A DNA stretch of 64,000 bases from an uncultured Candidatus Saccharibacteria bacterium. Lineage in GTDB: Bacteria; Patescibacteriota; Minisyncoccia; UBA6257; GWB1-50-10. A program made the translations under genes and the position numbers. How positions within the stretch are numbered: the first letter of the stretch is position 1; the number at the start of each line of letters is the position of its first letter. Below the pieces are notes generated by a model that saw only the letters and a list, made by a program, of their open reading frames with translations, was not told where the DNA came from and made no database searches. Below, in pieces: positions 5,006-60,683 of the stretch. The stretch lies in assembly GCA_964449245.1 (NCBI GenBank), contig CAYUXY010000002.1, positions 39,463 to 103,462 of the forward strand, in the 5' to 3' direction.

Positions 5006-5275
5006 TTATTCTCTGGATGGACGGTCAGTCATCGGCCGAGCTTCGTTTACAACGAGAGTTCTGCCTCCGAATTCCTTTCCATTCCACATTTCAATAGCCT
5101 TTTCCATTCCTGCGTCGTCGGCCATTTCAACGAATCCAAAACCGCGAGATCTACCGGTAAATTTGTCCATCATTATTGTGACAGAAACAACTTCACCAGC
5201 CTGAGAAAACGCTTGTTTTAAATCGTCATCCGTACTCTTATACGGAATGCCTCCGACATAAAGTCTCTTTCCCAT
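5006..5275 (-). CDS. RRM-domain RNA-binding protein
   Basis: MGKRLYVGGIPY ... RGFGFVEM gives RNP2 and RNP1 motifs. The start was chosen at the internal Met of the longer tracked ORF (5006..5365). Confidence 0.8.
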   Translation of the reverse strand: MGKRLYVGGIPYKSTDDDLKQAFSQAGEVVSVTIMMDKFTGRSRGFGFVEMADDAGMEKAIEMWNGKEFGGRTLVVNEARPMTDRPSRE

Positions 5276-5447
5276 TAAAAGTGTGTATTTGTGCGTAGGG
5301 CGACCTCTCCTCCTGCATTGTTTCCTCCCATACGATGGAAAGCCACCTACGCGAAACAGAAACAAATTTATGCTGAGAACCTACTTTATTATTATCCCAC
5401 AATTCAAAAAAAATGCAACTATGAAAGACGGCCGAACACAACCGGAT

Positions 5448-21476: not shown

Positions 21477-22688
21477 CTATTTGAGGTCATTATATATATT
21501 AGTTATTTCTTCAGCTGTAAGCGCTCGGCGATAAATCCGCACTTCATCAAATACTCCTGCCGGAGAATATATCTCAGCCCAACTTTGTTTACCGACATAT
21601 AACTCGCTTGCAGTATCCCAATCAGTTGTCGTACTTATATTAAGCGACCCATTTGATACGCCATTTAAATATCCATAAACTTTCGAATCTGCGCGATTTA
21701 CGACAATAGCAGCCAAATACCAGTTATTGCTATTTATAGCGTTTGTAAAATTACCAGAAACATCAAAACTTCCTCCACCGTCTCCGGCTGAGAATTTCAA
21801 ATATGCACCGGAAAATTCCCACCTCCAGCCATCATACGATCCACTATATTTATTAATCAGACTTTTTTCACCAGAAAGAGCCGTATAATCATTTACCTTA
21901 AACCATGCAACAACAGAAAAGTCTCCTGTTTGGAAATTAAGGCTTTCTCCGGAACCAAATTTTCCATACGTTCCGCTTCCGTTAAATAATGCGCAGGCTC
22001 CGGCTTTGCAATTCGGATATGAAACCCACGTAGGCACGCTCAAAAATGTACCAGTAGATCCCCTGCCGGACGCGTCATATATAGTTGAGCTTGCTCCCTC
22101 GTCAAAATGCCAATATCCAGCCAGTCCATCTTCAACCCTTACTGTAGTTTTTCCAAGAGTATTGATTACGACATCGCCCGCCAAAATTCCGTCACTTCCG
22201 GAATAAAGAGTAATGACTTTTTTTGCGTCCAATACTCCGGACAACGCGCTTAAAACCACATCGACGGTTTGTCCTAAATGCGGATTGCCAAAACGAACTC
22301 CGCGTCTTAGCGAATAAGTCTGATCAATAGTACCGGACGCGTAACTTTGGCCACTCCAAACTTTGAACGAATCCGTATCTCCGCTCGACAATCTCAATCC
22401 CCACGCCTTACCGTTTTCCTGAGTAATGGATCGTTTTTGCGTATCGCGGATAACCGCGACAAGTTCCCCTAATGTAAGCCGTAGATTTTGACTGCTCCTG
22501 TATTTTGAAAACATTACAAACCCGCCGGTAGACACTATCGCCGCAATCGCAACGACAACAAGAACCTCTATGAGAGTGAATGCCGATTTTTCACGCAATT
22601 CGTTTTTAAACGGATTGCGTTGGAAAAATCGAGCACCCCGCCCTCTAAGCGGTGATTCTTTTTTTGAGTGATCGCCAAGAACTTCCAT
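21477..22688 (-). CDS. type IV pilin-like protein with LamG-like domain
   Basis: KSAFTLIEVLVVVAIAAIV prepilin motif, LamG-like region (GYWHFDE ... WYLAAIVV ... YLNGV). The ATG start overlaps the GIY-YIG gene. A TTG at about 22598 would give a short MREKS leader. Confidence 0.65.
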   Translation of the reverse strand: MEVLGDHSKKESPLRGRGARFFQRNPFKNELREKSAFTLIEVLVVVAIAAIVSTGGFVMFSKYRSSQNLRLTLGELVAVIRDTQKRSITQENGKAWGLRLSSGDTDSFKVWSGQSYASGTIDQTYSLRRGVRFGNPHLGQTVDVVLSALSGVLDAKKVITLYSGSDGILAGDVVINTLGKTTVRVEDGLAGYWHFDEGASSTIYDASGRGSTGTFLSVPTWVSYPNCKAGACALFNGSGTYGKFGSGESLNFQTGDFSVVAWFKVNDYTALSGEKSLINKYSGSYDGWRWEFSGAYLKFSAGDGGGSFDVSGNFTNAINSNNWYLAAIVVNRADSKVYGYLNGVSNGSLNISTTTDWDTASELYVGKQSWAEIYSPAGVFDEVRIYRRALTAEEITNIYNDLK

Positions 22689-22869
22689 AATATTTTAACT
22701 TTCGCTCTCTGCTTCTTGCTTTTATTTCATCATTATACGCCTCATAGTAAATCAAAACAAAATTTGGCAAATCATTCTTGTGCTCTTTCATTCTACGTAA
22801 AAGATTATTGGTATAACCAATGTATAAATCGGAGCGCTTGATATGTTTTAGAACATATACGAAATACAT
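22645..22869 (-). CDS. GIY-YIG nuclease family protein (UPF0213-like)
   Basis: YFVYVLKHIKRSDLYIGYTNNLLRRMKEH GIY-YIG motif, 74 aa. Confidence 0.75.
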   Translation of the reverse strand: MYFVYVLKHIKRSDLYIGYTNNLLRRMKEHKNDLPNFVLIYYEAYNDEIKARSRERKLKYYGSSWRSLKKRITA

Positions 22870-22936
22870 AGAGGGCGGGGTAAGGTTTTAAAAACAAATT
22901 TTATTCGACTTTGTCTCAAAAATTTGTATAAAGCCC

Positions 22937-26239: not shown

Positions 26240-26407
26240 AAAAATTGAAAGTTAAAAAATCAAAATGGAAAATGGCGTAATATTAATTTCGATTGAATGG
26301 AAGAAGTATAAAGTTAAAAGACGAAGAACGGTCTGAATTCTATGCTATCCTCTCCTCTTTTATCTTTCTACTTTTCACTTTTGTCTTTCTGCCTTCTTCT
26401 CCGACAA

Positions 26408-28228: not shown

Positions 28229-28557
28229 AAGAAACTTTTTAGCTGCCCCAATTTCACCGGTGTTTAAAAAGATCCGGCAACTTTTTTTGGTACCGTGCTT
28301 GCGCACGGTATTACAAACCGCTGAAAGTTATCCGCCATTTGAAAATAGATTTCCAAATAAAAAGCGGATTGCTTTCGGCGATGTGTAATCGACTAAATTA
28401 ATTAATCCACGAACAGCTTCCGCTACCCGTGCCTTGTTACGACTTCGTCCGTGTCACCGAGCTTAGGCTGAACCCCTGTTGGAGTTTTCACCCACTCCCG
28501 GCTCCCCTGACGTGACGGGCGGTGAGTACAGGACTCGAGAACGTATTCACCGCGGCG

Positions 28558-28593
<36 letters not shown>

Positions 28594-28835
28594 AGGGCGA
28601 GTTGCAGCCCTCAATCCGAACTGGGGCGGTTTTTGATGGGATTAGCTCCGTCTTACGACTTGGCAACCCATTGTTTCCGCCATTGTAGCATGTGTGTAGC
28701 CCAGGGCGTCAAAGGGCCATGCTGATTTGACGTCGTCCTCGCCTTCCTCCGTCTATAAGACGGCAGTATCCCGTGACACATATAACACGGGAGAAGGGTT
28801 GCGCTCGTTACCCCACTTAAGGGAACACCTCACGG

Positions 28836-28866
<31 letters not shown>

Positions 28867-29121
28867 CCCGCCGTCCTTGCGGACAACAATCCTTTCGGAC
28901 TGTCTTCGTCGGGATTTCAAGCCCTGGTGAGGTGTCTCGTTTACCATCGAATTAAACCACATGCCCCACCGCTTGTGCGAGTCCCCGTCTATTCCTTTGA
29001 GTTTTAAGCTTGCGCTCGTACTTCCCAGGCGGCAGATTTAACGCGTTAGCTACGCCACCCCGAGGGTCGATACTCGAGACAGCTAATCTGCATCGTTTAG
29101 GGCGTGGACTACAAGGGTATC

Positions 29122-29765
29122 TACAATTTTGTTACTGCATAACAAAATTGCAATTTCTAATTTTGAATTTCGAAACTAATCGAAATAAAAATCTAATAAT
29201 TGCAAGCTCTGTTATGGGATGAAATATTTCTATTCATCTCTCTATGTCGCCATAGAGTTCGGCCTATATCTTCTCATCATAATGACGAGTCTGGCGTATA
29301 GTCTCTGAGGCTCCAAATTTACTATAGAAAATTATTCTTGAATCATTGTATAGACGATTCGAAGAATTTCTCAATTTTGATCTCATCGATTGCTTATCAT
29401 TGCTTCTATACAAGATCATTGCTTGATCGATTGATCAATTTTCCTATCAACATAATAAAATTGTTGCCTGCTGATTGTCTGCACCGAAAAGATTTTCACT
29501 CAACAATGAGTACTCTCGGATTCTCAGATTTTCCAGCATATAGCCAGATTATCCCCCGGACGACTTTCCGGAGGGGACTAATGCTCAATGGTACCCTTCC
29601 ACTCCGCGTATTCTTCAATACGCGAGACAATACATTTTTCAAGAAGCTCTCGGAAGTGAAAAAGATTGGTCTTTTGTAAAACAAAAGTTTTTCACTGAGA
29701 GTGCAAACCCGATTTTCCGCTGGAGAAAATCGAGGTTGGTTCTTGAAAATGAATTATCGAGCAAG
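29122..29765 (-). other. ~640-nt intervening sequence inside 16S (between GGATTAGA and GATACCC), ORF-less and highly structured
   Basis: Conserved 16S sequence is contiguous once this block is removed. No homing-endonuclease ORF. Multiple local hairpins. Boundaries are ambiguous by 2 nt. Confidence 0.7.
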
Positions 29766-30335
29766 TCTAATCCTTTTTGCTCCCCACGCTTTCGCGCCTC
29801 AGGGTCAGGAACGTCCCAGCAGAATGCCTTCGCCTTTGGTGTTCCGCACGATATCAACGGATTCCACCCCTACACCGTGCGTTCCATCTGCCTCTAACGC
29901 CCTCTAGTATGATAGTTTCCACGGCAGTTTCGGAGTTGAGCCCCGAGATTTAACCGCAGACTTATCATGCCCCCTACGCGCCCTTTACGCCCAATAAATC
30001 CGGATAACGCTTGTGGCCTTCGTATTACCGCGGCTGCTGGCACGAAGTTTGCAGCCACTTATTCCCGCCGTACTATCAGTCTTGCGACTTTCTCCGGCGG
30101 AAAAGTAGTTTACACACCTAAATGCTTCATCCTACACGCGGCGTCGCTCCATCAGGCTTTCGCCCATTGTGGAATATTCTCGACTGCTGCCTCCCGTAGG
30201 AGTAGGAACCGTATCTCAGTTTCCTCGCTGGGGAACAGGCTCTCACCTCCCCTACCGGTCGTAGTCTTGGTAGGCCATTACCCTACCAACTAACTGATCG
30301 GACCTAAGCCACTCCCAAAGCAACTTGCGTCTTTA

Positions 30336-30432
30336 CCCATCTCCAGTTCACTGAAAACAATTTCCTAAATACAAAGTTTGTAATATTAACATTCTTTGTT
30401 CAAAAAAATGTACTCAGTGAACTGGGGATGGG
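30336..30432 (-). repeat. 97-nt structured hairpin element in 16S V2 helix (copy A)
   Basis: cccatctccagttcactg ... cagtgaactggggatggg. Identical to copy B except for one compensatory base pair. Confidence 0.85.
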
Positions 30433-30515
30433 ACCATCGGGAATTAGTTCGCCTTTCGGCGAATTATGCCCGACTCTGGGGTATGTACTAAGGTGTTACT
30501 AGCTCGTTCGCCACT

Positions 30516-30612
30516 CCCAGCTCCAGTTCACTGAAAACAATTTCCTAAATACAAAGTTTGTAATATTAACATTCTTTGTTCAAAAAAATGTACTCAGTGA
30601 ACTGGGGCTGGG
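30516..30612 (-). repeat. 97-nt structured hairpin element in 16S V1 helix (copy B)
   Basis: cccagctccagttcactg ... cagtgaactggggctggg. Identical interior to copy A. Confidence 0.85.
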
Positions 30613-30764
30613 CGTTCGACTTGCATGCCTTATCCACGCCGCCAGCGTTCATCCTGGACCAGGATCAAATCCTCAAAAAAACAAATTGGGACAACTAAAA
30701 AATTTCTTTATTTTTTCGCTGTTTTAACTATTAAATTGACAAAAAACTTTCCTTTTTCACAGCA

Positions 30765-33828: not shown

Positions 33829-33862
33829 CAATAAAAAACCGCGATGGTCAATCGCGGTTTTA
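33829..33862 (-). terminator. rho-independent terminator after prfA
   Basis: aaccgcgat-ggtcaa-atcgcggtt followed by a U-run on the minus strand. Confidence 0.55.
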
Positions 33863-34597
33863 TTTCATTTCTCTCGCAGTCTTAATTATCTTATCCATAT
33901 CCCCCTCTAAGGTCTTCTCCACCCCGTAGAATTTTTTGCCCATTCTGTGATCGGTTATCCTGTCTTCGGGGAAATTATACGTCCTTATCTTTTCCGAACG
34001 GTCTGCGGAGCCTATCTGCTCTTTTCGTATCTGGTCAACGGACCCGACAGCTTGCTCTCGAGTTATCTCAAAAAGTTTTGCTCGGAGTATTTCCATAGCC
34101 TTTTCCCTGTTTGCGTGCTGTGTCCTTTCCTCTCGCGAAGAAATGACTATTCCTGTGGGCTTATGGGTAATCCGCACGGCAGTTTCAACTTTATTTACAT
34201 TTTGCCCTCCGGGACCGCCTGAACGGCAAAAAGTTATTTCCAAATCGCTTTCTTTTATATCAACCTCCTTTGCTTCCACGATAGGCAAAATGGCAACGGA
34301 CGCCGTTGATGTGTGAATCCTTCCCTGACGTTCCGTAACAGGCACGCGCTGAACGCGGTGAACTCCTGATTCCTGTTTCATATCGTTATATACCCCCTCG
34401 CCTTTTATTTCTGCGACAAAGGTTTTATACCCCTGCGCGCCGGATTCGGACGCGTCAACTATACCAAATCCCCATCCGCGCTTTACGGCATATCTCTGAT
34501 ACATTCTCGCCAAATCTCCGGCAAAAATCGACGCCTCATCTCCACCCGCCCCGGCTCTGATTTCAACAATAATCTTTTTTATATTTTCAACATTCAT
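33860..34597 (-). CDS. prfA: peptide chain release factor 1-type protein lacking N-terminal domain 1
   Basis: 245 aa. PVT codon-recognition tripeptide ([14 protein letters not shown]) and GGQ motif ([11 protein letters not shown]). Begins directly at the [10 protein letters not shown] region. Confidence 0.8.
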
Positions 34598-34843
34598 AAT
34601 ATTTTATTCCATTTTTTTACACACCGGGGCGAGGCTCGCCGAATTGTTTGCTGTAAGCTGGAGGCGGCCCGCCCCGGCCCTGATTTCAACAATAATCTTT
34701 TTTATATTTTCAACATTCATAATATTTTATTCCATTTTTTTACACACCGGGGCGAGGCTCGCCGAATTGTTTGCTGTAAGCTGGAGGCGGCCCGCCCCGG
34801 CCCTGATTTCAACAATAATCTTTTTTATATTATTCGTATCCAT
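34553..34843. repeat. 123-bp tandem direct repeat (about 2.4 copies) duplicating the prfA start region
   Basis: ATGs at 34597, 34720 and 34843 on the minus strand. Each upstream copy encodes [38 protein letters not shown] then a stop. Confidence 0.85.
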
Positions 34844-34910
34844 ATGATTTATAAATCAATAACACTGATGCTGACGTTCACAAGTACAAAAATTATTATC
34901 CAAAAATCCG

Positions 34911-35789: not shown

Positions 35790-35798
35790 ATTTTTATT

Positions 35799-35959
35799 AT
35801 ATCAGCATCGCACCACTTTATTCGTATCATTCGAATGCATTAGTATATTAGCATCGCACTTATTCTATTCGTATCATTCGTATAAATTCGTATATTAGCA
35901 TTGTGTCTATTCATTCGTATCATTCGCATAAATTCGTATATTAGTATTATACCTATCTT
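35799..35959. repeat. ~47-bp tandem repeat x3.4 immediately upstream of fba
   Basis: Units tagcatcgcac ... attcgtatcattcgYataaattcgtatat repeated head-to-tail. Confidence 0.8.
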
Positions 35960-39331: not shown

Positions 39332-39422
39332 ATTAGTATTTCGTATTTTTGTCTTTCTTCTTTTCTCTTTTAACTTACGTATTTAGAAATTTGCATTTTT
39401 ACTTTAAACTTTCATCTTTTCT

Positions 39423-39451
39423 CCCTACGGGAGATCTGCCGTAGGCAGACA
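39423..39451. repeat. palindromic core tccctacgggagatctgccgtaggcagac inside an AAAG/CTTTT-rich array (reverse-complement copy at 60499..60530)
   Basis: Two nested palindromes, tctccc-tac-gggaga and tctgcc-gta-ggcaga. Exact reverse complement occurs 21 kb away. Confidence 0.8.
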
Positions 39452-39558
39452 ACTTTATATTTCTCCCATTCAATCATTAATACATTCAATCGAAATTCGA
39501 AATTAAGTAATTAGAAATTATTTCTCCTGCATACTATATACAACATTCTATATACCAT

Positions 39559-49558: not shown

Positions 49559-49746
49559 ATCTTAATATTAATTTAATAACTGAGTAAAAAGTTGAAAGTA
49601 CAAAAGATGAAAGTGAAAAAACTAAAGCACGAATGTGGGTATTTTTCTTTCTTTTCTTTTAACTTTAAACTTTTATCTTTTTACTTTTGTCTTTTATCTT
49701 TCTGCATTCTTCTCTAACAACTAAAAACTAAAATCTAAAAACTGCA

Positions 49747-51450: not shown

Positions 51451-51504
51451 AATTTCTAATTACTTAATTTCGAATTTCGATTGAATGAATCAATGATTGA
51501 ATGG
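51451..51504. repeat. repeat module A (reverse orientation) directly abutting the ATG of the Cys-rich gene
   Basis: aatttctaattacttaatttcgaatttcgattgaatgaatcaatgattgaatgg. A similar copy lies at 53321..53378. Confidence 0.75.
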
Positions 51505-51598
51505 AAAAAGTATAAAGTTGTAAGACAAAAGATGAAAGTAAGAATGCAACTATTTTTCTCTGTTTTTTTTCTTTTAACTTTAAACTTTCGTCTTTTGT

Positions 51599-53320
51599 CT
51601 AACTGATTTCATTTTGGTAACACTGTTCACAATATATGACTTCCGGTCTCTCTGGAGCGTAGGATGTCATTATTTCCGCACTACATTTTGCGCAATTACG
51701 TTTCCACAATTTAAGAGGATTCCTTTGCATCAAACGCGAAAAATAACGGCAATTAGAGCACTTTCTCGGAAGCGGGATATTCATTCTTCTGTAAAATTGG
51801 AGTTCCTGCGGGACGATTCTGAAAGCCTTTGTGCAATTGCATCGTTCTTTCATATTTGGATTATCTTTATCATCCCACGTTTCGCACTGTATTATTTCTT
51901 TCAAAATATCATCGGTTACTGTGGAAATTTCTTCCGGTAAATCTTCCCACGATTTAGTCGGAACATAATCCTTATCCTTAATTTCTTTCCAAACATATCC
52001 CCGCTTTAATGCTTCGTCTTTTGAAAGATAAAAATAGTCCTGCGCCGCGCTTATGTTATACGGCAAAAATGATGCTTCCGGTGGGAAAAACTCGCCGAAT
52101 TTATATGTTTTTCCAAAACTCAAAAACGGCATATCGTCCATATGTTTTCTTATTTCCGGCAATAATTTTTCATACTCTTCTTTTGAATACTGTTTGTTCA
52201 AAATGCAGTATTGTTTATTCTTAAGCCCCACACATCCGAAAAGATACGAGGACGAATAACAATTATCACAATACGTTAAATCGTGGCACGATTCCCACGA
52301 TTCGTTAACGAATCTGATATTTGAGAGATTATATCCGCAATTCGCGGTTTCATACACAAGCTCCGCATTTCTTCCCCAGTACGAATAATCCATACAATCT
52401 TTACCCTCAATAATGGACAACAAATTCTTTCCATGCTCAACATCTCGTAATTGATAGGAATTGGACACATCATTGCAATTTGTAAGCCAATTTCCCGAGG
52501 AATTCGTGCAATTTATAGCAACCGTTGATCTGCGCGGATAATTCATTGCAAATTTTTTAAAACGTGCGCGCATCTTTTCAACACCCATTGCCGTATTGAG
52601 ATGAAAATCACGCAGTTTTATTTCATAATCCTCTTTGGAATATTGTTCATTGAATATACAATATTGCTTATTTAAAAGACTGGCGCATCCGATACAATTC
52701 GAGCAATTTCTGCAATCAAATAGAAAAAATGAATCCCTGCACTGCCTGCATTCCTGCAGATATTTGGACCCATAGCATTCGAACGCGTCTATACTGCCAA
52801 ACACGAGTTCGGATTGATGAACATTGAAGCAATCCATACAATCTCTTGATTCCCAAAGATTGTACGAGTAGCTCGAATTTTCATTATAATTCGCCCTGAT
52901 TATGAGGTAGCAACCTTTGTTATAACTCGCGCGGTTGCAAAATTCATTTCCTGCCTGATCGCCCTGAATCGTTCTCTCCGCTCTCGGAACACGAGCCTTC
53001 AATTCCCTAAACTGCTGGAAAAACGGTTTTGAAAAATCATAATCTTTTCCATATGAAATCGGATCCCAATTGTCGCTTCTGTAGCAATCCAAACAATAAA
53101 CCGGATACTCTGAGCCGGTGTCGTGCGTAGAAATTATTTTCTTTCCGCAAAGTGAACAAGTATTGCCGTATAAATATCTCTCCGCGCAAAAAGAAAGCCT
53201 CCGCTCAAATCTGCACGTCGGGCAAAATGTCGGCGGAGGAACATCAATCTTCTGATAAAAAGACTCATCATCGGGAGTGATTTCAAAATCAGCATTACAG
53301 TTCTGACACAGCTTATTCAT
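51599..53320 (-). CDS. cysteine-rich protein, tandem paralog 2 of the 49747..51450 gene
   Basis: 573 aa. About 60% identical in the N-terminal 100 aa (MNKLCQNCNADFEITPDDESFYQKIDVPPPTFCPTCRFERRL). Same internal repeats. Confidence 0.7.
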   Translation of the reverse strand: MNKLCQNCNADFEITPDDESFYQKIDVPPPTFCPTCRFERRLSFCAERYLYGNTCSLCGKKIISTHDTGSEYPVYCLDCYRSDNWDPISYGKDYDFSKPFFQQFRELKARVPRAERTIQGDQAGNEFCNRASYNKGCYLIIRANYNENSSYSYNLWESRDCMDCFNVHQSELVFGSIDAFECYGSKYLQECRQCRDSFFLFDCRNCSNCIGCASLLNKQYCIFNEQYSKEDYEIKLRDFHLNTAMGVEKMRARFKKFAMNYPRRSTVAINCTNSSGNWLTNCNDVSNSYQLRDVEHGKNLLSIIEGKDCMDYSYWGRNAELVYETANCGYNLSNIRFVNESWESCHDLTYCDNCYSSSYLFGCVGLKNKQYCILNKQYSKEEYEKLLPEIRKHMDDMPFLSFGKTYKFGEFFPPEASFLPYNISAAQDYFYLSKDEALKRGYVWKEIKDKDYVPTKSWEDLPEEISTVTDDILKEIIQCETWDDKDNPNMKERCNCTKAFRIVPQELQFYRRMNIPLPRKCSNCRYFSRLMQRNPLKLWKRNCAKCSAEIMTSYAPERPEVIYCEQCYQNEIS

Positions 53321-55741: not shown

Positions 55742-55834
55742 AGCCTCTCCAATTGTACCTTTCGCACCCTATTTTTGTCCAAAATACGGTGAAAATGCGA
55801 ATAAAGGCACACTTCTATATTATCATATTGCAGG

Positions 55835-55863
55835 TTGACAGAGAGAGAGTTTTGTAGTAGAAT
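55835..55863 (+). promoter_or_regulatory. consensus sigma70 promoter TTGACA-N17-TAGAAT (copy 1 of a duplicated 47-bp cassette)
   Basis: gttgacagagagagagttttgtagtagaataaaagatagaaaataatt. An AAGGAG SD follows 8 nt before the ATG at 55908. Confidence 0.6.
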
Positions 55864-55907
55864 AAAAGATAGAAAATAATTAAAAAATTCATAAAGGAGT
55901 GTGCGTC

Positions 55908-56331: not shown

Positions 56332-56478
56332 TCGCCATATTTTTTGCACCCATCTCCCCGTCTATTATCGGCTTAATCCATCTGTATTTCTCCTCTTTTG
56401 TTGATTTGGGCATAGTTTGCATATGTCCTTAGACTATCTCTAAAAGTGCAATATGTGTGTGGACATTACCCGAGGGAG

Positions 56479-56507
56479 TTGACAGAGAGAGCGTTTTGTA
56501 GTAGAAT
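56479..56507 (+). promoter_or_regulatory. consensus sigma70 promoter TTGACA-N17-TAGAAT (copy 2 of the duplicated cassette)
   Basis: gttgacagagagagcgttttgtagtagaataaaagatagaaaataatt. An AAGGAGG SD lies 7 nt before the ATG at 56571. Confidence 0.6.
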
Positions 56508-56570
56508 AAAAGATAGAAAATAATTGTAATTTTAATAATACATCTAATTAGTTAGAAAGGAGGAATTGTC

Positions 56571-60296: not shown

Positions 60297-60419
60297 TTTT
60301 TATAGTATTTAATTTATTGACCTTTATTATACCACATACCATATACCATCGTCAATGCAACATTATTTATTAAGTATAACACAAAAAAACACTGTGTTAA
60401 AAGACAAAAGATAAACTTG

Positions 60420-60600
60420 TTACTTTTAACTTTCTACTTTCGTCTTTTATCTTGTTTCTTTTGTCTTTTATCTTTTCACTTGTTACTTTTAACTTTTCTG
60501 CCTACGGCAGATCTCCCGTAGGGAGACGACTTTCTACTCTTTTGTTTTTCTTCTTTTATCTTGTTTCTTTTGTCTTTCTTTACTTTCAACTTTCTACTTT
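60420..60600. repeat. AAAG/CTTTT-rich degenerate heptad-like repeat array with internal direct repeats flanking the palindromic core (60499..60530)
   Basis: Plus strand reads cttttatcttgtttcttttgtctttt on both sides of ctgcctacggcagatctcccgtagggagac. The transcribed minus strand reads GAAAGTAGAAAGTTGAAAGTAAAGAAAGACAAAAG. Confidence 0.8.
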
Positions 60601-60612
60601 CAACTTCTTTTG

Positions 60613-60683
60613 TGCGGTCAGGGAGAATCGAACTCCCGTCCGTTGCTTGGGAAGCAACCGTCCTACCACTAAACGATGACCGC
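60613..60683 (-). tRNA. tRNA-Gly (anticodon CCC)
   Basis: Manual cloverleaf: 7-bp acceptor GCGGTCA/TGACCGC, D-arm GTTT-AGTGGTAG-GGAC, anticodon arm GTTGC-TTCCCAA-GCAAC, T-arm GGGAG-TTCGATT-CTCCC, discriminator A. CCA is not encoded. Confidence 0.85.

Follow-up and report, generated by a model that had tools for sequence, protein, structure and literature searches.

A 30-bp sequence, TCTCCCTACGGGAGATCTGCCGTAGGCAGA, which folds into two adjacent hairpins and is referred to here as the core, occurs exactly twice in a stretch of 64,000 nucleotides (the window) from an uncultured Candidatus Saccharibacteria bacterium (contig CAYUXY010000002.1). Copy 1 lies at 39420-39449 on the plus strand and copy 2, its exact reverse complement, at 60497-60526 on the minus strand. 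A first-pass annotation of the same DNA had recognised this exact recurrence and had placed the second copy slightly off, at 60499-60530. Each core is probably a solo copy of a 30-bp non-autonomous mobile twin-hairpin DNA, widespread but patchy in the Patescibacteria, that inserted precisely at the target TTK^MAA (^ marks the insertion point), with the surrounding arrays of 7-nt repeats (heptads) serving as an older landing pad. This reading is directly supported by family membership, hairpin covariation, target preference, a 30-bp polymorphism between filled and empty sites, in-frame invasion of genes, insertion into tRNA loops and nesting of copies.

The structure of the core was examined by folding the DNA of either strand. 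The minimum free energy fold consisted on both strands of two adjacent hairpins with 6-bp stems and 3-nt loops, as had been proposed in the first-pass annotation, with an energy of -9.5 kcal/mol and a z-score of about -3.8 to -4.0; within a 70-nt context the z-score was -4.1 to -4.9. None of 100 dinucleotide shuffles yielded a match to the core, even when up to 3 mismatches were allowed, and a search of the window for further half-hairpins of the core found none. Two independent Logan assemblies (SRR8925737/8) contained the identical sequence and were broken at the core.

One genome per prokaryotic species was scanned with the pattern TCTNCCNNNGGNAGATCTNCCNNNGGNAGA, which matched at least 116 stretches, clearly more than the two loci to which the core might have been confined; all family counts given here are among the matches listed. 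The core family comprised 102 copies with 61 distinct sequences, found in low-GC metagenome-assembled genomes (MAGs) that were assigned by record title mostly to the Candidate Phyla Radiation (CPR), a few having other labels. The classes represented were Saccharibacteria, Nomura-, Doudna-, Wolfe-, Azam-, Specht-, Sung-, Davies-, Berkel-, Staskawicz-, Lipton- and Yanofskybacteria, and Paceibacterota, and one MAG contained at least 24 cores in 107 kb. The family consensus, TCTSCC-TNC-GGSAGA followed by TCTSCC-GNA-GGSAGA, has the same form on the reverse strand. The local pairs 4-12 and 19-27 were Watson-Crick in 94 of the 102 copies each, with C-G, G-C and A-T as alternatives, whereas the corresponding pairs of a long stem (4-27 and 12-19) were kept in just 55-56 copies. 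The local pairs have thus been preserved by compensatory change and the global pairs have not, which identifies the twin hairpin as the selected structure and led to the rejection of a single long stem of 15 or 7 bp. The 7-bp stem suggested earlier (CCTACGG/CCGTAGG) can form in the window copies and is unsupported by covariation in the family. The first loop is TNC and the second GNA, their middle bases being mutually complementary in only 17 copies. Mini-hairpins closed by a C-GNA-G triloop are unusually stable as DNA (Hirao and colleagues), which points to a structure at the level of DNA rather than RNA.

The distribution of the family is patchy. Neither a core nor a half-core was present in 642 kb sampled from the 80 best relatives of the window found with elongation factor G (EF-G; up to 75% identity), and no core match was found in IMG/VR, in PLSDB plasmids or in GenBank phages, for which reason a phage or plasmid vector was rejected. 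One MAG, CAYHOD01, contained at least 9 copies of a 50-nt three-hairpin variant (L011 3905-3954, L011 7210-7272, L026 670-719, L089, L105, L111, L079) in which hairpin 2 is interrupted after its first TC by a 20-nt block, CCTGCCTGCCGAAGGCATGG. What looked like half-cores beside TCCCTGCCTGCC/GGCAGGCAGGGA, considered as the split ends of a larger parent transposon, proved to be full copies of this variant and not the ends of a 3.3-kb element. The same MAG encodes a multi-copy AAA+/DUF4143 ATPase, and three of its four full-length genes have a core no more than 150 nt away, a proximity that is not significant; this ATPase was rejected as the enzyme of the element, as it is confined to that MAG and absent from all other core loci. 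Copies from Omnitrophota and Cloacimonadota (L016, L108), in which the loops AGA and TTT replace TNC and GNA, may represent a distinct non-CPR subfamily. A further 26 listed matches came from high-GC actinomycetes (Streptomyces, Micromonospora, Frankia and others; L001, L017, L028, L036-L038, L043, L047, L050, L052, L060, L075, L085 and others) and consist of TCTGCC-N3-GGCAGA in tandem with GC-rich, non-complementary loops; they were judged to be a different motif and were left out of the 102. The flanks of this motif are conserved in Streptomyces, and it is possibly a tandem operator.

The flanks of the 102 copies, beyond the searched pattern, had T at position -2 in 91 copies and at -3 in 71, and A at +2 in 86 and at +3 in 65, giving TTK^MAA as the preferred target. 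The 24 copies located in coding sequence showed the same flank preference as the rest, from which it follows that TTK^MAA is the target and not part of the element. The core-bearing open reading frames (ORFs) were housekeeping genes, encoding Tgt, RsmH, RelA, RecG and aminoacyl-tRNA synthetases, to which 10 codons had been added in frame. Seventeen copies had an open frame of at least 300 nt on both sides; they were distributed 8, 3 and 6 over the three codon offsets, and none contained a stop. Three ORF copies, in Tgt, RsmH and RelA, were checked against homologues. Aligned with solved homologues, Tgt (SPFGRSPVGR) and RsmH (SAYGRSPEGR) each have exactly 10 unmatched residues, located at the core.

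In RelA/SpoT both filled and empty sites were found. The query P0001 is filled, FC[LPMGDLPKGD]KGGHIT (the inserted residues are bracketed), and P0002, at 89% identity, is filled by a decayed copy, FC[LTTPDLSKKD]KGGHIT. P0003 (82%) and P0004 (79%) are empty, reading FCKGGHIT and FCKDGQIT, P0005 (76%) is filled, FC[RPLGDLPKGD]KDGQIT, and P0006 (73%) is again filled and decayed, FC[RPLGNLPKDD]RGGQIT. The other listed orthologues with a locatable site (more than 100 of 120), at lower identity, are empty and have 8 residues there, except that P0068 and P0070 carry an unrelated 19-residue segment. At the DNA level the empty sites read GTGTTCTG^CAAAGGAGG in L199 (P0003), with CAAAGG after the insertion point, and GTATTTTG^TAAAGACGG in L201 (P0004), with TAAAGA. 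The filled sites read GTGTTTTG / TCTCCCTATGGGAGATCTCCCGAAGGGAGA / CAAGGGAGG in L025 (P0001), with the right flank CAAGGG, and GTATTTTG / TCGTCCTTTAGGAGATCTCCCGAAGGGAGA / CAAAGACGG in L200 (P0005), with the right flank CAAAGA. The difference between filled and empty relA is exactly 30 bp, without target duplication, at TTTG^CAAA.

Other arrangements involving the core were copies nested within one another (L034) and tandem 37-nt units made of a core and one heptad (L026). Cores were also located in the anticodon, D and T loops of tRNA fragments, the core-bearing tRNA copies being truncated duplicates beside an intact tRNA. One copy (L084) that had been placed within a 16S gene proved to fall outside the Rfam 16S call.

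The window has a GC content of about 40%, is Patescibacteria-like and has nearly all of its genes on the minus strand, among them genes for a type IV pilus and ComEC. Copy 1 occupies a spacer of 227 nt that separates two of four tandem NUDIX genes; no other record of the exact NUDIX protein of this locus was found. A spacer of 315 nt separates tRNA-Gly(CCC) from a DUF5663 gene; it contains copy 2, which lies 85 nt beyond the tRNA 3' end and has no adjacent ORF or tRNA fragment. The promoter of the DUF5663 gene is located on the gene side of the array, which places array and core outside the 5' untranslated region (UTR) of that gene. Neither copy has a U-tract 3' of its hairpins, a terminator scan gave just a partial overlap with the core on the non-coding strand, and Rfam 15 returned no match with E ≤ 1 over the two loci besides the tRNA and two chance-level matches. 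Both copies are most likely without a host function. The positions of the cores, arrays and neighbouring features are given in Table 1.

Table 1. Positions in the window of the two cores, the heptad arrays and other features discussed in the text.
Feature	Position	Strand	Description and evidence
Core copy 1, 30-bp twin hairpin	39420..39449	+	Exact match; minimum free energy fold on both strands; fits family consensus
Copy 1 hairpin 1	39420-39434	+	TCTCCC-TAC-GGGAGA
Copy 1 hairpin 2	39435-39449	+	TCTGCC-GTA-GGCAGA
Core copy 2, exact reverse complement of copy 1	60497..60526	-	Exact match; fold; Logan assemblies
Heptad lattice left of copy 1	39336..39419		Twelve 7-nt units ending exactly at the core (...TTACTTT AAACTTT CATCTTT/); lag-7 z = 4.6
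Heptad lattice right of copy 1	39450..39531		/CAACTTT ATATTTC ... GAAATTC GAAATTA AGTAATT AGAAATT; lag-7 z = 1.8 (weak) for this side alone
Heptad array left of copy 2	60415..60496		About 12 CTTT-type units up to the core (...TTACTTT TAACTTT/); Tandem Repeats Finder (TRF) period 7, 12 copies; lag-7 z = 6.6
Heptad array right of copy 2	60527..60611		/CGACTTT CTACTCT ... CTTTCAA CTTTCTA CTTTCAA; lag-7 z = 3.8
AAAG-type then CTTT-type array without core	26295..26402		Imperfect inverted repeat; fold z = -1.5
AAAG-type then CTTT-type array without core	49583..49715		Imperfect inverted repeat; TRF; fold z = -1.5
AAAG-type then CTTT-type array without core	51497..51599		Imperfect inverted repeat; TRF; fold z = -3.35
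tRNA-Gly(CCC), upstream neighbour of copy 2 spacer	60612..60683	-	ARAGORN; Rfam 63 bits
Sigma-70-like promoter of DUF5663 gene	60326..60355	-	TTGACG, 18-nt spacer, TG-TATAAT; 11/12 consensus positions, extended -10
Stand-alone GIY-YIG ORF, 74 aa, 22648-22869	22636..22880	-	Between perfect 11-bp inverted repeats CCCCGCCCTCT and AGAGGGCGGGG; possibly related
Sites of 53-80-nt intergenic module	24355, 38773, 39467, 41104	+	
Sites of 53-80-nt intergenic module	48911, 51451, 53321	-	

The first-pass annotation had described heptad arrays around the cores, and these were borne out by an excess of 7-nt spacing, by lag-7 self-matching and by TRF, which showed them to be wider in the window than first noted. 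Spacings of 7, 14, 21 and 28 nt from CTTT to CTTT occurred 39, 32, 24 and 15 times in the window, compared with 3-16 times for other spacings, so that multiples of 7 were 3-5 times commoner. About 25 arrays of period 7, 14 or 21 were found by TRF in the 64 kb, built from units as diverse as GAATTTT, TCGAAAT, AACTAAA, CTTTTAA, CTATATA and others. The entire copy 1 spacer from 39336 to 39531 is a single heptad lattice whose register is kept across unit families, the right part being in register with the left after removal of the 30 nt, and for copy 2 the lag-7 z-score rose to 7.3 once the core was deleted. The left lattice of copy 1 is an AAAG-rich tract when read on the transcribed minus strand. 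The AAAG string quoted earlier from within 39340-39460 actually belongs to the right flank of copy 2, where it occupies minus-strand positions 60567-60601. The AAAG/CTTTT arms that had been noted near 26.3, 49.6 and 51.5 kb do exist, and they fold only modestly better than shuffled sequence (Table 1).

Among the tandem repeats of CPR loci, period 7 is the most frequent class whether cores are present (122 arrays in 613 kb) or absent (85 in 642 kb); the actinomycete loci have few such arrays (6 in 200 kb). The abundance of the arrays in core-free CPR loci separates them from the element. The units are mostly of the form NAANTTN, and cyclic AA.TT units, which put TTNNAA at each unit junction, are enriched in the window (13 of 24, 2.4 expected), in the core loci (42 of 173, 16 expected) and in the core-free EF-G loci (22 of 98, 11 expected). 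In about 20 array-embedded cores from many genomes and with varied units, the core coincides exactly with a junction between units, and taking out its 30 nt leaves the 7-nt phase unbroken, as in CAATTTT/CAATTTT, GATTTTT/GATTTTT and TAATATC/TAATTTC. The window junctions are CATCTTT/CAACTTT for copy 1 and TAACTTT/CGACTTT for copy 2, with the cores in opposite orientations. It is concluded that the heptad arrays are an independent feature of CPR spacers, which offers a target each 7 bp, and are not arms of the element. The earlier suggestion of the arms of a miniature inverted-repeat transposable element (MITE) comes close for the core, a tiny non-autonomous insertion with filled and empty orthologues, and fails for the arrays, which are pre-existing spacer DNA. 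Protein-binding tracts of the ARN (Hfq) type, also suggested earlier, are contradicted by a period of 7, with harmonics at 14 and 21, instead of 3. The flanking units are often identical at 6-7 of 7 positions, and a 7-bp target-site duplication was considered as their source; it was rejected since the coding insertions and the empty RelA sites give exactly 30 bp and no duplication.

Heptads also occur in two other features of the window. An intergenic module of 53-80 nt (CATTCAATCATTAAT.CATTCAATCGAAATTCGAAATTAGGTAAATCGAAATT), itself built of heptads, recurs at 77-93% identity in seven spacers and in both orientations (Table 1), and part of it is included in the right lattice of copy 1. A 46-nt tandem repeat of 3.4 copies at 35798-35956, upstream of an aldolase gene, is rich in ATTCGTA-type heptads.

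An all-versus-all BLAST of 80 proteins encoded beside cores revealed one recurrent family, a stand-alone GIY-YIG nuclease of 74-95 aa (Pfam PF01541). The closest solved relatives are the UPF0213 proteins BH0048 and EF2693, and the core-linked proteins consist of the catalytic domain only, without a DNA-binding domain. Nine of 13 GIY-YIG ORFs begin within about 110 nt of a core. Nine cassettes share the same order, which comprises a truncated 5' tRNA copy with a core inserted, 7-27 nt, the GIY-YIG ORF and an intact tRNA of the same identity. Seven of the nine have the core in the anticodon loop, where it separates nucleotides 34 and 35 at CTG^CAAA for Cys, TTG^CTAA for Ser-GCU and CTT^AAAA for Leu-UAA; the other two (L054, L042) have it in the D arm. 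The core of one cassette (L091) is identical to the window core at 30 of 30 positions. Homing by break repair into position 34^35 would generate just such a cassette, in which the core marks the left boundary of the inserted block. The window cores are solo in that neither has the GIY-YIG ORF directly 3' or the truncated tRNA copy seen in the cassettes. The only member of this nuclease family in the window (Table 1) is flanked by pilC and a pseudopilin gene and appears to occupy the loop of a GC-rich hairpin. In L055 a second GIY-YIG ORF is closely preceded by a tRNA D-loop fragment that carries, at 2012-2090, a twin hairpin of other sequence (TCCGCGACAACCCATTTATG...CATAAATGGGTTGTCGCGGA followed by TCCGCTCACGCC-GTA-GGCGATGAGCGGA), and other twin-hairpin families may play the same role as the core.

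A mechanism of insertion can be proposed on this basis. A nuclease would cut at the palindromic centre of TTK^MAA, or at the tips of the hairpins or cruciform, and the element would then be joined or copied in, either directly or through microhomology-templated repair. A heptad lattice would present a target at each unit junction, and both window copies would have landed at unit boundaries. We tentatively suggest that movement takes place at the level of DNA, with a hairpin or cruciform as the intermediate, and is assisted by a nuclease acting in trans. The best candidate for this enzyme, a possible one at present, is the small UPF0213-like GIY-YIG nuclease, as suggested by the cassettes with the core at their 5' boundary, and the main alternative to it is an HUH/Y1 enzyme encoded elsewhere in the genome.

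Several observations weigh against a mobile element of this kind. An orthologous empty site was recovered for neither window copy: EF-G-anchored relatives (up to 75% identity) lack a conserved tRNA-Gly/DUF5663 neighbourhood, and the paralogous NUDIX spacers are too mosaic for comparison. The pattern of filled and empty sites in RelA could have arisen from two insertions or from one insertion and two precise losses. The 30-mer is near-identical across very distant CPR classes, which is unusual for a selfish repeat and could mean recognition by a conserved host protein. Heptads accompany the core inside two ORFs, encoding a Trm11-like methylase (L087) and MiaB (L056), and the latter has 15 extra residues instead of 10, which is left unexplained if the arrays are purely an independent landing pad. 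With regard to the nuclease, the window cores have no adjacent ORF and the window GIY-YIG gene is 16 kb from the nearer copy, while the enrichment of the family (13 ORFs in 613 kb of core loci and 1 in 642 kb of core-free loci) is partly built in through the choice of loci for having cores.

Mobility could also be driven by a different enzyme, the core being a remnant related to REP/REPIN sequences (repetitive extragenic palindromes and their hairpin-forming doublets) or to the end hairpins of an IS200/IS605 element, moved as single-stranded DNA by an HUH/Y1 transposase (TnpA or a REP-associated tyrosine transposase, RAYT) encoded elsewhere in the genome. The target-specific and duplication-free insertion, the hairpin ends and the stability of the C-GNA-G triloop, which fits a single-stranded intermediate, all agree with this, but a Pfam scan of the 53 window ORFs identified no transposase (Y1 included), integrase or reverse transcriptase, and the sole recurrent family beside cores is GIY-YIG. 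The core also lacks a conserved 5' GTAG and has no space for guide tetranucleotides of the IS608 type, its flanks are constrained symmetrically (T at -2 with A at +2), unlike the one-sided IS200/IS605 target, and its copies are common within ORFs, which makes this origin unlikely. Dedicated transposition might be dispensed with altogether if a break at TTK^MAA were repaired by microhomology-primed copying from another core site, with the gain and loss of heptads as a by-product of slippage-prone repair. Conserved microhomologies of 3-4 nt flank every copy on both sides without target duplication, cores sit at the heptad boundaries where such microhomology recurs each 7 bp, and nested and tandem arrangements exist. 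Such repair gives no account, however, of the compensatory changes that preserve the hairpins, and the association with GIY-YIG cassettes is unexplained by it unless that nuclease makes the breaks; we regard it as quite improbable.

A cis-acting element of the host under selection, such as a protein-binding site, terminator, RNA-processing signal or nucleoid element with the A-rich arrays as functional context, would account for the strong conservation across distant CPR classes, the hairpin covariation and the frequent location of copies near tRNA genes. A structured UTR element was among the suggestions of the first-pass annotation, and a protein with an RNA-binding domain is indeed encoded in the window (RRM_1, 119 aa, 5006-5365, minus strand), the only obvious one there; nothing ties it to the arrays. 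Against such a function, copies of the core are found in either orientation with respect to transcription, in each of the three reading frames of essential ORFs, where they then decay as protein (LTTPDLSKKD, RPLGNLPKDD), and in tRNA loops. The core has no U-tract and no Rfam family, its arrays have period 7 and not 3, it is absent from the 642 kb of the 80 best EF-G relatives, and the downstream promoter at copy 2 lies beyond the array. As a general explanation a host element is largely refuted and must be considered very unlikely. Tolerance of the core in essential genes and tRNA loops could alternatively reflect a mini-intron excised from transcripts, leaving host genes and tRNAs unaffected. 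Excision at the RNA level is highly improbable, because the length is always a multiple of 3, the ORF copies contain no stops and they decay at hairpin positions yet stay in frame; in addition, the core-bearing tRNA copies are truncated duplicates beside an intact tRNA. Finally, De Bruijn assemblies break at the core, as might be expected of an assembly or sequencing artefact arising from palindromes, but the element is present in MAGs from many independent studies with variation and compensatory changes, in genes in frame and as filled and empty alleles, by which an artefact is refuted. Precise insertion of a mobile twin hairpin remains the preferred explanation.

The properties of the core were compared with those of known systems. 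Rickettsia palindromic elements (RPEs) are about 100-150 bp in length and known only from Rickettsia. Like the core, they are small palindromic selfish repeats found in non-coding DNA, in RNA genes and in frame within ORFs of small reduced genomes; 728 were counted in R. felis, with 85 within ORFs and 3 in RNA genes (PMC1166351). The core is set apart from them by form and size, as it is a twin hairpin of 30 bp (3-5 times smaller) with the target TTK^MAA and a superphylum-wide distribution. A core of this length leaves no possibility of sequence homology to RPEs. The small dispersed repeats (SDRs) of cyanobacteria (Nostoc), on which Elhai and co-workers reportedly wrote in 2008, are said to be 21-27 nt in length, apparently mobile without a known transposase, located in tandem heptamer arrays, nested and variably present between relatives. 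The core differs from SDRs in phylum, sequence and size. To our knowledge, in-frame invasion of housekeeping ORFs, insertion into tRNA anticodon loops and association with nuclease cassettes have not been described for SDRs.

REP and REPIN sequences are short hairpin-forming doublet repeats that are non-autonomous and present in many copies (PMC3116915), and in these respects the core is similar. REPs, imperfect palindromes of 20-40 nt with a conserved 5' GTAG, are extragenic, have sequences specific to the species and are accompanied in the genome by a cognate RAYT gene, whereas the core begins with TCT, GTA(G) is just one of its four loop variants (35 of the 102 copies), at least 17 copies lie within long ORFs and no RAYT was seen in the window or beside any copy. 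Classical MITEs, which derive from DDE elements, differ in that the core has no target-site duplication, as evident from the exact 30 bp in RelA and the 10-residue gaps in Tgt and RsmH, and no larger element bounded by split core halves, such as an autonomous parent would be, was found. IS200/IS605 elements share the absence of target duplication, a specific short target and hairpin ends; the target of the core is symmetric on both sides, however, the hairpins fill all 30 nt and leave no space for guide sequences, and no TnpA was seen among the 53 window ORFs with Pfam. Intrinsic terminators are distinguished by a U-tract, in place of which the core has TTK before and MAA after its hairpins on both strands. 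Overall the element behaves like an RPE, fails the tests for REP/RAYT, a classical MITE, a terminator and ARN tracts, and partly fits IS200/IS605 ends.

The arrays and the nuclease also have counterparts. Short tandemly repeated repetitive (STRR) sequences of cyanobacteria are tandem heptanucleotide repeats filling intergenic DNA. The CPR arrays likewise consist of tandem 7-nt units in intergenic DNA, but these belong to many A/T-rich families, mostly NAANTTN, instead of a few fixed heptamers, and are found in tiny genomes whose spacers are otherwise very short. Bacteria have been noted to contain an excess of heptameric repeats (PMC4692102). The free-standing GIY-YIG gene segB of phage T4 lies beside tRNA genes (PMC2330249). 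The cassettes resemble such homing genes in having a nuclease beside tRNA genes and a partial duplication of the flanking gene consistent with break-repair homing, while the CPR proteins differ in being 74-95 aa long, catalytic domain only and nearest to UPF0213. We know of no description of a GIY-YIG protein tied to a 30-bp twin hairpin at anticodon-loop position 34/35. No prior description of the 30-bp element was found in the literature on heptamer repeats, Patescibacteria, MITEs, palindromic in-frame elements and GIY-YIG/tRNA, and no mention of it was found in a 2026 paper on Patescibacteria tRNA introns. The two loci in the window are regarded as probable solo insertions of a very small and new form of palindromic mobile DNA.

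Other features of the window were observed in addition. The 16S rRNA gene (28395-30680, minus strand) is 2286 nt in length, has no adjacent 23S gene and contains a group I intron at 29240-29629 as well as two near-identical hairpin-forming insertions of 97 nt at 30336-30432 and 30516-30612. In an ORF resembling release factor 2 (33860-34597, minus strand), the match to the PCRF domain is confined to the C-terminal part of that domain. This ORF is closely preceded (region 33860-34850) by 2.3 tandem copies of a 123-nt unit, 99% identical and with GC-rich ends (CCCGCCCCGG...); as the unit length is a multiple of 3, the repeat may be an in-frame expansion at the prfB 5' end. A 61-nt repeat with 90% identity at 55834-55894 and 56478-56538, starting GTTGACAGAGAGAG...GTAGTAGAAT, is located ahead of two plus-strand ORFs and resembles a duplicated promoter region. 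The EF-G (fusA) matches in many relatives (L119, L121, L123, L126, L127, L130 and others) span 500-1000 nt beyond the 2.1-kb gene of the window, which suggests insertions such as introns, inteins or homing genes.

The genomes of the CPR are among the smallest and most streamlined known, yet a 30-bp element multiplies in them. With its target, its lack of duplication and its filled and empty alleles, the element provides a sequence-defined system for asking how such tiny DNA moves without an obvious transposase, and it points to a testable function for the abundant orphan GIY-YIG nucleases of the UPF0213 type. In practical terms it breaks assemblies, introduces 10-residue indels into phylogenetic marker proteins and can hide tRNA genes from annotation. 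The heptad lattices stand out as a general and unexplained building block of CPR intergenic DNA. A more speculative idea is that the twin hairpin might be the working end of an unrecognised DNA mobility system of the Patescibacteria, in which a minimal GIY-YIG nuclease, reduced to its catalytic domain, would read structure instead of an extended sequence, in the form of hairpin loops or cruciforms and TTK^MAA centres such as anticodon 34/35, and would drive duplication-free insertion, with the heptad lattices as cumulative footprints or amplified targets. Such a system, if it exists, would keep reshaping these minimal genomes in their spacers, in their tRNA loci and in the loops of their essential proteins, and its element would be the smallest mobile DNA so far described.

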